From IMG/VR virus record IMGVR_UViG_2660238600_000005: DNA of 4,809 nucleotides; one strand, written 5' to 3'. The notes beneath the pieces are model-generated. The model searched no databases. It saw nothing but the letters and a program-made list of their open reading frames with translations, and was not told the origin of the DNA. A program made the translations under genes and the position numbers. Each line of letters starts with the position of its first letter. The stretch's first letter is position 1. The stretch comes from a virus. Taxonomy: Duplodnaviria > Heunggongvirae > Uroviricota > Caudoviricetes. This document shows, in pieces, positions 1 to 4,639 of this stretch.

Positions 1-711
1 TTACGCCTTCTTTATATCCTCCATAATTCCAGAGTGGGACATATTTGGGACATTATCACCAAAAATGTCGTCTATTTTCCTCGCATGCTCTGTCAAATGA
101 TTAGGCGCAAGGTGAGCATACCTACGAACCATTTCTATGGACTCCCATCCGCCCATTTCCTGAAGCACTGATAATGGGACGCCTGACTGAATCAGCCAGC
201 TTGCCCAGGTGTGTCTGAGGTCATGGAAACGGAAATCTTCAATTCCTGCACGACGACAAGCTGATAGCCATGATGTCTTGCTGTCGATGCGCATCTTCCT
301 GACTGCAGGCGTTGATGTTCCATCTGCTCGCTTAGCCGCCTTGGTATGTACAAACACCCATTTGTGATGCTTGCCTATTTGATCACGCAACACTTTACAG
401 GCGGTATCGTTCAGCGCCACACCAATGGCGCGGTTTGATTTGCTCTCTTCTGGATTCACCCAGGCAACTCGTCGCTGCATGTCGATTTGTTGCCATTCCA
501 GATTTATGATGTTCGACTTTCTCAGACCAGTTGCCAGCGCAAACTTGACGACAGATTTCAGTGGTTCGGGGCACTCATCAATAAGGCGTTTTGCTTCCTC
601 CTTTTCCAGCCATCTGACTCGCTTGTTTCTGACCGCTGGTATCTTGATGACAGGCGCTTTTTCCAGCCACTTCCAGTCGCGTTCTGCAGCACGGAGAATG
701 GCCTTTATCAT
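1..711 (-). CDS. int: Tyrosine recombinase / phage integrase, catalytic domain only; N-terminal arm-binding and core-binding domains absent, so possibly a truncated remnant
   Basis: 236-aa ORF with ATG at 711-709 and TAA at 3-1. Tyrosine-recombinase active-site pattern is present: Arg in [12 protein letters not shown]-x-x-R in [15 protein letters not shown], and the Tyr in VRRYAHL. Reading the same frame upstream of the Met gives only 24 codons before a stop at 786-784, and no integrase-like N-terminus is seen in another minus frame. Confidence 0.85.
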
Positions 712-1778: not shown

Positions 1779-1863
1779 ATTTGGATAGTACTTGGGAGAG
1801 GCATGATTTTAATACGCATATAAATAACTCCTCTATCAATTGGATTTTGAGAAAATATTAACA

Positions 1864-2181
1864 TTAATCATGATTAAGGAGTAATTTTAAATCTTCCAAT
1901 AAAATTTGTTTAAACTCTTGTGTTCTATGATCGATATACAACGCAAGTTTGCTTGCATTATCTTCCAGGTCACGTATCTCTCTGTCACCTCGAATAAACC
2001 CAACTAAATTTAAACGTTTAGATAGTTCAGAACTTCCTTCTATGGCATCTTGGAGTATTTGAATGATTTCTGAATTCATTGAGCGCCCGTTTCGTTTGGC
2101 TCGTTCAGCTATAGTTTCACGCATCCCATCAGGGAAACGGAGGTTAAACTTATCGTAGTCTTTTACTTGTTTGTCAGCCAT
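1864..2181 (-). CDS. Mnt/Arc-family ribbon-helix-helix transcriptional repressor, 105 aa, with a C-terminal extension that could be a coiled-coil oligomerisation region
   Basis: N-terminus MADKQVKDYDKFNLRFPDGMRETIAERAKRNGRSMNSEIIQILQDAI matches the Arc/Mnt signature as I recall it (FNLRxP ... NGRSxNSE ... Q). Start chosen at ATG 2181-2179, preceded by a G-run; the track ORF extends to 2211 but the extra 10 residues have no ribosome-binding site and do not fit the family N-terminus. Stop TAA at 1866-1864. Confidence 0.8.
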   Translation of the reverse strand: MADKQVKDYDKFNLRFPDGMRETIAERAKRNGRSMNSEIIQILQDAIEGSSELSKRLNLVGFIRGDREIRDLEDNASKLALYIDHRTQEFKQILLEDLKLLLNHD

Positions 2182-2280
2182 TGGACCCCCCAAAAAAATG
2201 AATGGTGCCATATTGCCACATCAATTCAATGGTGGCATTATGGCCTCATGGTGTCATTGTGGCCTCATGAGGTTATGTCA
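2182..2280. promoter_or_regulatory. Divergent promoter/operator region between the Mnt-like and Arc-like genes
   Basis: Candidate rightward promoter: -35 TTGCCA (2213-2218), 17-nt spacer, -10 CATTAT (2236-2241). Direct repeats TGGCCTCATG at 2241-2250 and 2260-2269 (19-bp register). Perfect 10-bp palindrome CCTCATGAGG at 2263-2272 overlapping the ribosome-binding site of the rightward gene. Further repeats AATGGTG(C/G)CAT at 2200-2210 and 2228-2238. Confidence 0.5.
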
Positions 2281-2439
2281 ATGGAAAAGAAAGAGGTAAA
2301 AATTACCCTTCGCTATCCGCAAAAAGTGAAGGATGAATTCAAGCGAATTGCTCAGGAGGAAGGGATGTCTGAGAACGCAGCTATTGTTCAGGCGCTTGTA
2401 TGGGCATTGAAATTTAGAACACGGATACATGCTCGCTAG
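2281..2439 (+). CDS. Small ribbon-helix-helix (Arc/CopG-like) DNA-binding protein, 52 aa
   Basis: MEKKEVKITLRYPQKVKDEFKRIAQEEGMSENAAIVQALVWAL fits a beta-strand / helix / helix RHH pattern. Start ATG 2281 has GAGG (2269-2272) at 8-nt spacing. The 5' extension of the track ORF (from 2167) translates the operator region and is not accepted. Confidence 0.6.
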   Translation: MEKKEVKITLRYPQKVKDEFKRIAQEEGMSENAAIVQALVWALKFRTRIHAR

Positions 2440-2446
2440 AAACAGC

Positions 2447-2478
2447 GAAGCCCCACTGGCGGCAACCTTAGGGGCTTC
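2447..2478 (-). terminator. Hairpin in the arc-like/ant-like intergenic region; possible terminator of a leftward antisense RNA, by analogy with P22 sar
   Basis: GAAGCCCC (2447-2454) pairs with GGGGCTTC (2471-2478) around a 16-nt loop. On the minus strand the stem is followed by GCTGTTTCT (T-rich); on the plus strand there is no T-run. Confidence 0.3.
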
Positions 2479-2509
2479 TATCGAAAATAACCGCGAAGGA
2501 AATATCGAC

Positions 2510-3178
2510 ATGAGTATTGTAGCAACATCAGATCTGAACTTCCAAGGTGAAGCACTAGTGCCAGTGGCAAATATTGCCGGAATATGGCTAACTTCATCCA
2601 ACCTAGCAAGAGCACTGAAGTATTCGAATAGTCGCGCAGTCACGATGATTTACAACAAATATGCTGACGAATTTTCCAGTAGTATGACTAGAGTGCTTGA
2701 AGTCAGTACCTTAGAGAATGATGTCGAGGTACTTGATCTGAGTACCTCGAAAAGTACTCGAAACTTGAAGAAGAAAGTACGCGTTTTCTCTCTCCGCGGA
2801 GCCCATTTGATCGCCATGTTCGCCCGCACTCCTGTAGCCAAAGAGTTCCGCCGTTGGGTTCTGGATATTCTCGATCGAGAAGTTCAACAATCCCCAATCA
2901 TAAAACAATTCACTGATAACGAACTTTGCACACTTGCTTGGTTGTGGCGAGCTGGGGATGCGATGTTAACCGCCTGCCAGAACGTTACTCCTCTTCTTCA
3001 GGTTGCGGAGCATCGTGAAGCTGGTCGCTTCACTTCTATCGAGCAAGAATATCCCCAGATACTCAATAAGGCACAGGCAATCCTTGCCAGAGAAACGGCA
3101 CATGTAAAATTCCGGCCGTGGCAGGATGATAAGTGGAGTCGAGTTTTGCCGCATTTACGTTCGGATCGATTACAGTAG
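2510..3178 (+). CDS. Bro-N domain protein, antirepressor-like (Ant/Roi-type), 222 aa
   Basis: N-terminal region (FQGEALVPVANIAGIWLTSSNLARALKYSNSRAVTMIYNKYADEF ... VFSLRGAHLIAMFARTPVAKEFRRWVLDIL) matches the Bro-N pattern as I recall it, including the ...AK.FRRWV... motif. Start ATG 2510 has GAAGGA at about 9-nt spacing. The track ORF start at 2429 overlaps the upstream gene and lacks a ribosome-binding site. Stop TAG at 3176-3178. The C-terminal ~95 aa are unassigned. Confidence 0.8.
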   Translation: MSIVATSDLNFQGEALVPVANIAGIWLTSSNLARALKYSNSRAVTMIYNKYADEFSSSMTRVLEVSTLENDVEVLDLSTSKSTRNLKKKVRVFSLRGAHLIAMFARTPVAKEFRRWVLDILDREVQQSPIIKQFTDNELCTLAWLWRAGDAMLTACQNVTPLLQVAEHREAGRFTSIEQEYPQILNKAQAILARETAHVKFRPWQDDKWSRVLPHLRSDRLQ

Positions 3179-3241
3179 ATTCCAATTAACAATGAGAAAC
3201 ACATAGCCACCCCGTGGTATTGAAACCATATAATGTTGGAT

Positions 3242-3270
3242 TTGAAAACAGATCTTTTTCCATGTATTAA
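3242..3270 (+). promoter_or_regulatory. Candidate sigma70 promoter facing the 118-aa gene and nin region
   Basis: -35 TTGAAA (3242-3247), 17-nt spacer, -10 TATTAA (3265-3270) with TG immediately upstream. The spacer contains an imperfect palindrome centred on AGATCT. Confidence 0.3.
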
Positions 3271-3438
3271 TAACTACATCCCCGCGAGTGATTCAAAAAG
3301 GAGGGCCCAATTTTGTCCGAGTTTTTGTATTCCCCCGCATGCCGCTGCGGAGCACTACATCTGAGTGTCTGACTAGGGGATAAAATTAGACTGGATAGTG
3401 AGAAGAAAGTGGCGTGCTAGGCTGTGCCGAGTGCTACC

Positions 3439-3562
3439 AGTACACCCTGGGGGTGTGCAGCTTTCGCCGAGACTGTAGTGGGTATCGGTTAATGCACGAA
3501 AAACCGAGAGGTCAGACAACCAATTTGCCGTAGGATTGTTTCCGGTGCGATACCGGTGTACT
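3439..3562 (+). other. Nested long-range complementarity in an ORF-free region; candidate structured RNA/leader or DNA site of unknown function
   Basis: AGTACACC (3439-3446) is complementary to GGTGTACT (3555-3562), and GGTATCG (3481-3487) to CGATACC (3548-3554). The two 3' partners are contiguous, giving a 15-bp interrupted helix enclosing internal segments. No ORF of 60 aa or more on either strand between 3211 and 3639. Confidence 0.25.
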
Positions 3563-3639
3563 AACTGAAAGCAATGCGAAAAAGCATAAACTCGGTCCTT
3601 CAGTCGCCCTACACACTATTTACTAAGAAGGGCTAAAGC

Positions 3640-3996
3640 ATGGATACAATTATCACATGGATGGGAGATCGTCTGTTGGGGTGGATAACAAACAAATCCG
3701 ATCTGCGGCAGAGGGCAATCACTGGATTAACTCCTGCGATTTGTTCAACAATTTTATATACTGAAAAATTAAAACGTGGTGAGCCTAATAACCCAAACGA
3801 AGAAGAAAAACTTTATAGGCTTTGGTATGAAGCGTCTTCCCAAGTCGTAGACTTTGATCGAGAGCTGGCTAAAAGATGTTTAGATAAATCAGAATATTGG
3901 CTTCATTCTGAATTATATAGCCCTGAGAAAGTTGAAGAGCTAAACATTTCTTTGGTTGGTATGAAGGCAACGCTTGAAGGAATAAAGCACAATTAA
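3640..3996 (+). CDS. Hypothetical protein, 118 aa; orphan accessory (moron-like) gene
   Basis: ATG 3640 has GAAGG (3628-3632) at 7-nt spacing. The ORF is visibly more AT-rich than its flanks. No recognisable motif. Confidence 0.6.
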   Translation: MDTIITWMGDRLLGWITNKSDLRQRAITGLTPAICSTILYTEKLKRGEPNNPNEEEKLYRLWYEASSQVVDFDRELAKRCLDKSEYWLHSELYSPEKVEELNISLVGMKATLEGIKHN

Positions 3997-4085: not shown

Positions 4086-4187
4086 ATGCGCACACACAAT
4101 CCAAACTCTCTTCTCCCTCCACAGATGCAGAAATGCACCTGCGATATATTGTATCCAGCGTTTCACCTCTACGGAGGTGAAGCGTGA
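4086..4187 (+). CDS. 33-aa micro-ORF coupled to the NinB-family gene; possibly equivalent to ylcH, the small ORF that precedes ybcN in DLP12-type prophages
   Basis: ATG 4086 has GGGGA at 5-nt spacing. Peptide [33 protein letters not shown]. Its TGA (4185-4187) overlaps the GTG start of the next gene (GTGA). The ylcH assignment rests on length and position from memory, not on a sequence match. Confidence 0.4.
4161..4182 (+). promoter_or_regulatory. Hairpin sequestering the NinB-family gene's Shine-Dalgarno; likely translational-coupling element
   Basis: CACCTC (4164-4169) pairs with GAGGTG (4174-4179) around loop TACG, extendable by T-A pairs to 8-9 bp. GGAGG at 4173-4177 lies in the 3' arm, and GTG 4184 follows. 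Confidence 0.35.
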
Positions 4188-4639
4188 ACCTACCACAAGA
4201 TGGCATCAAACTGCATCGCGGTAACTTCATCGCTATCGGCCAGCAGATCCAGCCTTATCTGGAGAACGGAAAATGCTTTCGCATGGTGCTTAAACCGTGG
4301 CGTGAGAAACGCAGTCTTTCCCAGAATGCACTCAGCCACATGTGGTACAGCGAAATCAGTGAATACCTCATCAGCAGGGGTAAAACGTTCGCTACTGCAG
4401 CATGGGTAAAAGATGCTCTCAAACACACATACCTCGGTTATGAAAGCAAAGAACTGGTTGATGTCGTAACCGGTGAAATCACTACTATCCAGTCGTTACG
4501 CCATACCTCCGATCTTGATGCCGGAGAGATGTATGTCTTCCTCTGTAAGGTTGAAGCCTGGGCGATGAATATTGGCTGCCACCTGACTATTCCGCAGAGC
4601 TGCGAGTTCCAGCAGCTCCGCGACAAGCAGGAGGCGTAA
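4184..4639 (+). CDS. ninB: NinB/YbcN-family phage recombination protein, 151 aa
   Basis: GTG start at 4184 with GGAGG upstream. Contains the ...[24 protein letters not shown]... segment with the S-x-x-Q-N motif I associate with the NinB family; length and position immediately before ninE match DLP12 ybcN. Stop TAA at 4637-4639. Confidence 0.88.

Follow-up and report, generated by a model that had tools for sequence, protein, structure and literature searches.

A probable diverged homologue of the P22 sar antisense RNA at the arc-ant junction of a DLP12-like Escherichia coli prophage

The closest described relative of the element presented here is sar (RF00262) of phage P22, which is encoded in the arc-ant interval on the opposite strand. 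P22 sar has been detected by small-RNA sequencing (PMC13397905) and is described as base-pairing to block Ant translation (PMC13397905; PMC2629481), a function that is known for P22 only (PMC13397905). A sar-like element is also located at the arc/ant junction of phage epsilon34 (PMC2629481). In P22, the 5' end of sar adjoins the start codon of ant (sar starts at 15090 and ant at 15091 in the P22 annotation), the promoter is embedded in the first ~12 ant codons and displays a TG-extended -10 element, and the RNA is composed of two hairpins, with an anti-Shine-Dalgarno sequence in the loop of the 5' hairpin and a GAAGCCC...GGGGCUUC terminator, the tail of which reaches the arc stop codon. At the level of sequence, all of these features are predicted to recur at the locus analysed here. 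The same logic, a short terminator-ended antisense RNA that restrains an antirepressor or a lysis-lysogeny regulator, is found in the c4 RNA of the P1/P7 immI region, in the anti-Q and gene-23 antisense RNAs and in the lambdoid oop RNA; these RNAs have neither a sequence nor a structural relationship to the present element. The c4 RNA acts on upstream sites after being processed from a longer transcript and is not known to target the ant ribosome-binding site directly.

The window, i.e. the whole stretch of 4,809 nucleotides that was analysed (IMG/VR record IMGVR_UViG_2660238600_000005), belongs to a DLP12-like E. coli prophage and contains a complete P22-type immI module with mnt-like, arc-like and ant-like genes. 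Homologues of P22 mnt, arc and ant flank the sar-like element in the order and orientation known from P22 (BLASTP, Pfam), and divergent mnt and arc-ant units encode ribbon-helix-helix repressors and an antirepressor. The mnt-like repressor gene (1864..2181, minus strand; 105 aa; Pfam Arc PF03869, E = 4e-20) is divergent from arc, and its product shares 47% identity with the N-terminal domain of P22 Mnt (BLASTP, E = 1e-14). The arc-like repressor gene (2278..2439, plus strand; 53 aa; Pfam Arc PF03869) ends with the stop codon TAG at 2437-2439 and encodes a protein with 36% identity to P22 Arc (BLASTP, E = 4e-9). The ant-like gene (2510..3178, plus strand) encodes an antirepressor of 222 aa with the Pfam domains Bro-N and P22_AR_C. 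While the C-terminal domain resembles that of P22 Ant (BLASTP), the N-terminal domains differ, Bro-N in the window taking the place of P22_AR_N in P22 Ant. A repeat search delineated a divergent control region with operator-like ATGGTGnCAT repeats (2196..2266), and a promoter scan located a Pant-like promoter (TTGCCA, 17 nt, TG-n-CATTAT) at 2213-2241 on the plus strand; by analogy, the control region may serve as the counterpart of P22 Pant/Pmnt. Within its lambdoid or DLP12-like element, the module maps to the nin region, with ren and ninB on either side, in contrast to that of P22, which resides in the late operon beside the tailspike gene.

Between the end of the arc-like gene (2439) and the ATG of the ant-like gene (2510), the minus strand carries an element spanning 2509-2440, which occupies the P22-type position and covers the ant Shine-Dalgarno sequence. 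The Rfam sar model (RF00262) matches this segment at 2508..2444 (minus strand) over all 68 model positions with 34.0 bits (E = 3.8e-4). Since the gathering cut-off of RF00262 is 43 bits, the window is not filed as a threshold-passing Rfam member but as a diverged homologue. The match is significant and full-length, and intermediates connect it to P22 in a graded series, in which elements at the same arc/ant junction score 97.8 bits (P22), 48 bits (SPN3UB), 44.8 bits (TL-2011b), 37.6 bits (ST11-VIM1phi8.1), 34.8 bits (KP12), 30.2 bits (Edno5) and 29.5 bits (phage 2851), the lowest score among the relatives being 27 bits. Apart from sar, scanning the window against Rfam gave a single match, a weak hit to BSnc120 at 1390-1467 that was rejected as chance (E = 7.7); no C4, oop or anti-Q family appeared at E <= 10. 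A further covariance model, R1, was built from 20 relatives with the classes of the window and of P22 left out. Its sole strong match in the window is located at 2509..2439 (minus strand; 53.8 bits, E = 4e-11), and on P22 sar it scores 57.8 bits. In a pairwise alignment, the window element and P22 sar have a mean column identity of 76%. An earlier note on this DNA had suggested a sar-like RNA at the position equivalent to that of P22 sar, and all sequence elements that define P22 sar are indeed present at matching places. In conclusion, the minus strand from 2509 to about 2440 very likely represents a diverged homologue of P22 sar, for which an antisense RNA of ~70 nt over the ant ribosome-binding site is predicted.

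The predicted RNA (2440..2509, minus strand; RF00262, model R1 and fold) folds into two hairpins with a minimum free energy of -24.6 kcal/mol. Its 5' end is placed at G2509, based on P22 and on the spacing to the -10 element, and its 3' end would fall at about U2442-U2440. The length of ~60-100 nt expected in the earlier note is thereby narrowed to a predicted ~68-70 nt. The 5' stem-loop (2480..2509, minus strand) is formed by a GUCGA/UCGAU stem and presents in its loop the anti-Shine-Dalgarno sequence UUCCUU (2501-2496), where P22 sar has CUCC; either UUCC or CUCC is found in this loop in every class. On the plus strand, the target site (2496..2512) comprises the Shine-Dalgarno sequence AAGGA (2496-2500) and the start codon ATG (2510-2512) of ant, in keeping with the proposal that a leftward RNA would be antisense to the ant ribosome-binding site. 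The ant ATG adjoins the 5' end of the sar element in 61 of the 70 homologous loci. The linker between the two hairpins measures 1 nt in the window as compared to 4 in P22 sar.

The 3' hairpin (2447..2478, minus strand) is homologous to the annotated terminator of P22 sar. It contains the 8-bp G+C-rich stem that had been described at these positions, an inverted repeat GAAGCCCC-N16-GGGGCTTC found exactly there; a 3x3 internal loop separates this outer stem from an inner one of 3 bp. The internal loop distinguishes the hairpin from that of P22 sar; as it is common to the whole class of the window, it represents a lineage trait rather than a private lesion. Likewise in agreement with the earlier observation, a T-rich tract follows the hairpin on the minus strand only (GCUGUUUCU, 2446-2438, overlapping the arc stop codon TAG), the plus strand being A-rich (UAUCGAAAAUAACC). 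This U tract is weak, with three consecutive U, or five U among nine positions. Most relatives carry the tail GCUGUUUUU, P22 carries AACUUUAC and the window GCUGUUUCU; the UUUCU of the window is thus shorter than the UUUUU of most relatives, but the experimentally known P22 sar terminator has an equally poor tail. The putative intrinsic termination signal consists of the hairpin and this weak tail and was not called by the generic terminator scan, because a 16-nt loop and the U count lie outside the rules of the scan. On its own, the hairpin is within chance and was dropped as evidence by itself: when the window is dinucleotide-shuffled, 9% of the shuffles contain a perfect 8-bp stem that has 6 or more G/C pairs and encloses up to 20 nt. 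The fold of the 74-nt minus-strand segment has a z-score of -2.3. Significance rests on the element as a whole.

A convincing leftward promoter had not been recognized by eye; the promoter scan of the minus strand, however, reveals a candidate at 2545-2516 (TTGGAA, 18 nt, TG-n-TACAAT) with its +1 at about G2509. The predicted -35 hexamer of this Psar (TTGGAA, 2540..2545, minus strand) is located inside ant codons 11-12, and the predicted extended -10 element (TGcTACAAT, 2516..2524, minus strand) extends over ant codons 3-5. Relative to ant, the promoter occupies positions +7 to +36, closely resembling the annotated Psar of P22 (+7 to +35). The expectation that the transcript starts inside the 5' end of the ant-like gene consequently holds for the promoter but not for the start itself, which is predicted at G2509, one base upstream of the ATG. 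The TTGGAA hexamer and the 18-nt spacer set the window apart from P22 sar. The hexamer is retained in the closest relatives (L004, L010, L023 and L048), and the spacer length counts against the assignment as sar. Promoter-like sites occur in the region at chance level (5 found versus 3.2 expected), and the terminator was uncalled; the generic scans were thus rejected as evidence and served only to locate the -35 and -10 elements. Across 52 distinct upstream sequences, the motif TTGcTAtAcT is conserved at -16 to -7. These sequences encode differing Ant N-termini from three N-terminal domain families, and in the -10 region the third position of ant codons carries the highest information (1.63, 0.95 and 0.90 bits). 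At the level of sequence, a leftward promoter is therefore predicted in the 5' end of ant, with its start beside the ant ATG.

Base pairing was evaluated in a covariance-model alignment of 70 homologues, in which 96% of the cells are paired as compared to 30-47% in slid controls, the alignment being fitted to the model and leaning towards its structure. Moreover, the outer terminator stem was prescribed by the pattern with which most homologues had been retrieved, so that unbiased evidence comes only from the 5' helix and from the inner pairs of the terminator. Compensatory changes are found in 13 of 21 pairs and in both helices: all seven pairs of the 5' helix show them, and six inner pairs of the terminator covary across the family. 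The number of compensatory cells is 105, versus 20 ± 3.8 in shuffles, and none of 500 shuffles reached the observed value. A MAFFT alignment of 52 homologues was discarded for pair counts, since differing linker lengths rendered the register of the 5' helix inconsistent.

Watson-Crick helices are strand-neutral, and plus-strand RNA can form the outer 8-bp stem just as well. The conserved structure might hence act solely in the rightward arc-ant transcript, as a stability, processing or attenuation signal, with no antisense RNA being made. Wobble pairs, however, discriminate between the strands: 302 G·U cells are opposed by only 7 A·C cells, which indicates that the helices are maintained on the minus (sar-sense) strand, and pairing drops from 96% on this strand to 76% on the mRNA strand. 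In addition, the plus strand lacks a U tract after the hairpin, its fold is unremarkable (z = -1.05), and the conserved leftward promoter, with its extended -10, keeps a fixed spacing, which restricts the choice of synonymous codons in ant. A signal confined to the mRNA is thus very improbable. Conservation of the segment by protein constraint is scarcely credible either. According to RefSeq, ant starts at ATG 2429, which would turn 2429-2509 into an N-terminal extension; the frame is open from 2429, the long form is called by PGAP and in several phage annotations, and it remains open across sar in 42 of the 70 loci. The other 28 loci, however, have an in-frame stop codon upstream of the ATG, on which ground a coding function of 2429-2509 was rejected, and the segment changes by compensatory base-pair substitutions and not by codon-like ones. 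The short form has a Shine-Dalgarno sequence ahead of ATG 2510 and its Bro-N domain begins near residue 25, whereas the long form overlaps arc by 11 nt and no ribosome-binding site is apparent by eye upstream of 2429. The RefSeq start of ant is therefore probably wrong.

Decay of a once functional element has to be considered as well, since the window is part of a DLP12-like remnant whose int-proximal and P genes are truncated. A descendant of sar might no longer yield a functional RNA, either because promoter and terminator have become too weak or because the module is silent in a defective prophage. The 18-nt spacer, the 3x3 internal loop, a tail weaker than the UUUUU of the relatives and the Rfam score under the cut-off would all be consistent with such a fate. 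On the other hand, none of the three reading frames (mnt-like, arc-like and ant-like) is disrupted, and an identical cassette is present in 15 retrieved loci and in the isolated phage PhiR5_1 (99.7% identity). Furthermore, the internal loop is shared by the whole class, and the functional terminator of P22 has no better tail. Taken together, a decayed relic appears unlikely.

We thus favor a functional sar homologue, for which the following mode of action is proposed. A sigma-70 promoter in the first 12 ant codons would fire leftwards, with G2509, the base directly preceding the ant ATG, as the transcription start. This would yield an RNA of ~70 nt that exposes the anti-Shine-Dalgarno sequence UUCCUU in the loop of its 5' hairpin and continues into the G+C-rich terminator hairpin, the tail of which adjoins the arc stop codon. 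Such an RNA would show full complementarity to the rightward arc-ant mRNA between the two cistrons, and pairing with the ant ribosome-binding site and a block of Ant translation would be expected from this complementarity. The RNA may thereby provide a post-transcriptional brake on top of the transcriptional control exerted by the Arc-like and Mnt-like repressors. From the sequence features and the comparison with P22 we infer that the RNA is produced, that it has approximately these ends and that it represses ant.

The same cassette is found at the same arc/ant junction in SPN3UB, TL-2011b, epsilon34, Stx phages (e.g. 2851) and the Klebsiella phages ST11-VIM1phi8.1 and KP12. From the arc stop codon to the ant ATG, the copies of the Klebsiella phages are ~95% identical to the window (88-91% in BLAST over a slightly longer stretch), whereas the Arc and Ant proteins share only 42% and 48% identity, respectively. 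In other enterobacterial phages, the flanking arc and ant genes are likewise strongly diverged from those of the window, and the sar-like copies are mostly unannotated, several of them also falling under the Rfam cut-off. The N-terminal domain of the partner downstream of the cassette is P22_AR_N, Bro-N or ORF6N, and an arc-like gene is missing from some loci. Distant BLAST searches with the junction gave matches in 324 of 5,426 complete E. coli genomes, including Shiga-toxin phages; these matches are mostly partial, and 20 cover at least 80% of the junction. A locus search seeded with the 53-aa Arc-like protein yielded 10 near-identical loci only. Scanning species-representative genomes with a 17-base pattern mostly produced chance matches, their scores of 32-45 bits stemming largely from the pre-selected hairpin, and was abandoned; the taxonomic breadth is accordingly kept to examples from Enterobacterales (Pectobacterium, Enterobacter) and some G+C-rich viral contigs. 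Tentatively, and with considerable doubt, the promoter and RNA of sar could be regarded as a self-contained, horizontally exchanged unit, more widespread than the Rfam threshold suggests, which stays near-invariant while the flanking repressor and antirepressor genes are swapped, and which in the DLP12-like remnant might still gate an antirepressor with the capacity to target repressors encoded by other resident prophages.

The predicted sar-like RNA of the window is a further case of a known regulator that standard annotation has overlooked, and its mechanism is not new. As the homologue scores under the Rfam cut-off, the RNA is left out by genome pipelines, which also stretch the antirepressor frame across it, the RefSeq ant from 2429 overlapping arc. 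The practical value of the assignment accordingly lies in annotation, and the known mechanism stays unchanged. Antirepressors influence prophage induction in Shiga-toxin phages. Once recognized, the RNA provides a point of post-transcriptional control that can be tested in antirepressor-driven induction, and possibly in the cross-induction of other prophages. Furthermore, the locus provides a clear example of a predicted promoter lying within codons 3-5 of a gene, whose synonymous sites it constrains. Downstream of the ant-like gene, at 3279-3614 on the plus strand, the window contains an unannotated structured RNA without an Rfam match, which measures about 340 nt and shows covariation.

From the ORF list and Pfam scans, the window opens with the C-terminal part of a tyrosine integrase (1–711, minus strand), the C-terminal end of lambda replication protein P (779–1096, plus), ren (1093–1386, plus) and an ORF of unknown function (1466–1864, minus). 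These are followed by two Arc-domain proteins, mnt-like (1864–2181, minus) and arc-like (2278–2439, plus), and by an ant-like Bro-N/P22_AR_C protein (2510–3178, plus); beyond a gene-free gap of 460 nt (3179–3639) lie another ORF of unknown function (3640–3996, plus), ninB/ybcN (4184–4639, plus) and ninE (from 4639, plus). Gene order and orientation of the mnt/arc/ant-like module are those of the P22 immI region. The mnt-like protein shares 47% identity with P22 Mnt over the DNA-binding domain (E = 1e-14) and the arc-like protein 36% with P22 Arc (E = 4e-9), and the similarity of the ant-like protein to P22 Ant is confined to the C-terminal domain. Situated between the divergent mnt-like and arc-like genes are a Pant-like promoter (2213–2241, plus; TTGCCA, 17 nt, TG-n-CATTAT) and operator-like repeats in 2196–2266 (three copies of ATGGTGnCATTrTGGCCTC; inverted pair 2202–2219/2232–2249), putative sites that are likely bound by the two ribbon-helix-helix repressors.

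By megablast, the window falls within a DLP12-type prophage that, in a small number of E. coli genomes, sits beside tRNA-Arg and intD. NZ_AP027748 matches with 100% identity over 91% of the window length in two pieces, which is the best cover in the collection; none of its complete E. coli genomes holds the whole window in one piece. Other genomes match from 742 onward only, and features annotated under the match include replication protein P and an IS1A transposase. The int-proximal junction (712–778), where the integrase fragment meets the P' fragment, is thus variable or rearranged among strains. The isolated phage PhiR5_1, 97.5% identical to window positions 1800–3160, carries the same mnt/arc/ant-like module between ren and ninB.

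At the arc-like/ant-like junction, an inverted repeat, GAAGCCCC-N16-GGGGCTTC, occupies 2447–2478, exactly where the earlier note had placed a hairpin that would terminate a possible leftward, sar-like antisense RNA. That note further claimed a T-rich tract on the minus strand only. The direction is right, since the minus strand continues into GCUGUUUCU and the plus strand into the A-rich UAUCGAAAAUAACC, but the U tract is weak; a generic terminator scan gave no call for this hairpin. Moreover, 9% of dinucleotide-shuffled versions of the window contain a perfect 8-bp stem with 6 or more G/C pairs, so that the hairpin by itself is not improbable. A putative leftward promoter, which had escaped inspection by eye, was located by a promoter scan on the minus strand at 2545–2516 (TTGGAA/18 nt/TACAAT).

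The predicted −35 element (2545–2540) and −10 element (2521–2516, with TG at 2524–2523 in front) lie on the minus strand inside the ant-like gene, and G2509, 7 nt downstream of the −10 element, adjoins the ant ATG (2510–2512). The fold of the predicted RNA (−24.6 kcal/mol, z = −2.3) comprises a 5' hairpin (2509–2480, minus), in whose loop UUCCUU (2501–2496) faces the ant Shine-Dalgarno sequence AAGGA (2496–2500), and, after a 1-base linker, the terminator hairpin (2478–2447, minus), followed by the tail GCUGUUUCU overlapping the arc stop codon TAG (2437–2439). The P22 record lists sar at 15021–15090 (minus), with its promoter at 15097–15125 (minus) and its terminator at 15021–15058; arc ends at 15022 and ant starts at 15091. 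The promoter thus spans +7 to +35 of ant in P22 and +7 to +36 in the window. P22 sar adopts the same fold, with CUCC in the 5' loop. However, the linker comprises 4 nt in P22, the terminator of the window has a 3x3 internal loop unlike that of P22, and the anti-Shine-Dalgarno sequence and the −35 hexamer differ. These differences account for a low score with the Rfam model.

In a permissive search of the whole window with Rfam 15, the sar family (RF00262) matched 2508..2444 (minus) over 68/68 model positions with 34.0 bits (E = 3.8e-4), below the curated cut-off of 43 bits. BSnc120, the sole other match in the window, was at chance level (E = 7.7). Applied to the corresponding arc/ant junction in ten related phages, the sar model gave a continuous series of scores at the same position: P22 97.8 bits, SPN3UB 48.0, TL-2011b 44.8, ST11-VIM1phi8.1 37.6, KP12 34.8, PhiR5_1 34.0, Edno5 30.2, phage 2851 29.5 and ST899-OXA48phi17.1 27.1. 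For a test independent of P22, 120 viral contigs were retrieved by the pattern GAAGCC-N6-GTT-N3-GC-N6-GGCTTC, and a covariance model, R1, was built from 20 of their sequences, leaving out the P22 class and that of the window. With filters off, R1 matched the window at 2509..2439 (minus) with 53.8 bits (E = 4e-11), the runner-up being the same hairpin on the opposite strand (12.9 bits); P22 sar itself scored 57.8 bits. By sequence, the window carries a sar homologue that has an intact promoter signal and a predicted 5' hairpin and terminator, and that is fully complementary to the region where ant translation initiates.

The pattern retrieval yielded 94 distinct sequences. In 80 of them, the reverse complement of a start codon lies 33–41 nt upstream of the hairpin, and each of the 80 also has a hairpin that begins at the following base and carries UUCC or CUCC in the loop. 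The retrieval pattern specifies none of these features. In an alignment of 70 distinct homologues (E < 1e-6), which was made with R1 and is thus fitted to that model, standard pairs make up 96.0% of cells. Compensatory changes occur in 13 of 21 pairs, among them every one of the 7 pairs in the 5' helix; the terminator's outer 6 pairs are set by the retrieval pattern. Compensated cells number 105, compared with 20.0 ± 3.8 after shuffling (0/500 shuffles as high), and sliding the 3' partners by 1–3 columns lowers pairing to 30–47%.

The promoter is likewise conserved. In 52 distinct upstream sequences, the consensus T-T-G-c-T-A-t-A-c-T stands at −16 to −7, and TG at −34/−33 together with A at −30 marks the −35 region. 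The −16 to −7 segment coincides with codons 3–5 of antirepressor genes that encode differing N-terminal peptides (MNSIAIL, MKSIAKA, MTSLAIA, MNIVAKS, MSIVATS, MNSVQNN, MHDNSTA) and N-terminal domains of three Pfam families, P22_AR_N, Bro-N and ORF6N. Information is highest at third codon positions (−9, 1.63 bits; −12, 0.95; −15, 0.90) and lower at first positions (−7, 0.99; −10, 0.42; −13, 0.55). This is the reverse of the expectation under protein constraint; what is conserved is the promoter DNA rather than the encoded peptide. In a comparison of the window with Klebsiella phage ST11-VIM1phi8.1, Arc and Ant share 42% and 48% protein identity, and BLAST-detectable nucleotide similarity is limited to 2429–2521; in the alignment, the segment from arc stop to ant ATG is about 95% identical and both flanks are scrambled.

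A structure acting in the mRNA only is very improbable. Over the helices, G·U occurs in 302 cells and A·C in 7, so that 96% of cells pair on the sar-sense strand versus 76% on the mRNA strand, an asymmetry that argues against a purely mRNA-borne structure, as do the missing U tract on the plus strand and the conserved leftward promoter; the plus-strand fold is unremarkable (z = −1.05). Still less credible is that the segment merely encodes part of a longer Ant, since relatives have in-frame stops and compensatory substitutions come pairwise. RefSeq and several phage records do start the antirepressor at an upstream ATG (2429 in the window), overlapping arc and running through the sar region. 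However, an ATG adjoins the sar 5' end at the same offset in 61/70 loci, an in-frame stop lies upstream of it in 28/70, ATG 2510 has a Shine-Dalgarno sequence in front, and the Bro-N domain starts near residue 25 of the short form, which makes 2510 the better call. The rival hardest to exclude, and itself unlikely, is a sar-derived relic that is no longer expressed; against it, the mnt-, arc- and ant-like genes are all intact and an isolated phage carries the identical cassette.

As a functional sar, the RNA would be transcribed from G2509, end near 2440–2442 and pair with the arc-ant mRNA across the ribosome-binding site, which may lower Ant synthesis. This type of element is textbook knowledge, P22 sar dating from 1987 and having an Rfam family. 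What is new here is modest: a diverged copy under the Rfam cut-off, located within the nin region of an E. coli prophage of the lambdoid or DLP12 type, paired with a Bro-N-type antirepressor, and unannotated, its presence leading to a start codon that is probably mis-called. In P22, sar acts as a small antisense RNA, base-pairing with the ant mRNA and blocking its translation (Liao et al. 1987, Wu et al. 1987, via PMC2629481, PMC13397905). It was seen again by small-RNA sequencing of P22-infected cells (PMC2629481, PMC13397905), and sar genes are on record for further P22-like phages, e.g. epsilon34 (PMC2629481).

In some other IMG/VR loci (L109, L084, L085, L120, L123), the small gene ending beside the sar terminator is not Arc-like, examples being Cys-rich, zinc-ribbon-like proteins of 63–74 aa; the one scanned, from L109, had no Pfam match. 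The sar-ant cassette thus also occurs without an arc partner. G+C-rich variants (L080, L104, L113, L136, L047, L075) keep the same layout, with a TGCTATGAT-type −10, CAT, a 5' hairpin whose loop contains UUCCUC, and a GAAGCCC...GGGGCUUC terminator; in L113, the one scanned, the variant lies upstream of an ORF6N-type gene. The sequences suggest that the sar architecture may reach beyond enterobacterial phages.

Unrelated to sar, an element of about 340 nt (3279–3614, plus) lies in the unannotated gap downstream of ant. Of 5,426 complete E. coli genomes, 159 carry it, and all 12 records sampled lack an annotated feature there; roughly 60 viral contigs, falling into at least 6 sequence classes, have it too. 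Most classes have a −10-like box just upstream and a clear intrinsic terminator ending the element directly after CAGUCGCC; the window instead has the ribosome-binding site of ORF 3640–3996 in place of that terminator. RNAalifold on 14 sequences predicted 86 pairs, 13 with compensatory changes. By pair counting, 97.5% of cells are paired (34–48% in slid controls), with 67 compensated cells versus 25.9 ± 4.0 shuffled (0/500). The single-sequence fold is not exceptional (z = −0.97), no Rfam family matches the element, either in its window copy (E ≤ 10) or in copies from four further sequence classes (E ≤ 5), and an exact-string literature search returned nothing relevant. Downstream genes are varied and of unknown function. 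The element looks like an undescribed structured RNA and merits study of its own.

Two further hairpins were observed. One, whose perfect stem measures 10 bp or more, lies inside ant (2724–2750), and a perfect hairpin at 4162–4181, TTCACCTC-TACG-GAGGTGAA, just before the GTG start (4184) of ybcN/ninB, would sequester the GGAGGTGA ribosome-binding site of that gene.
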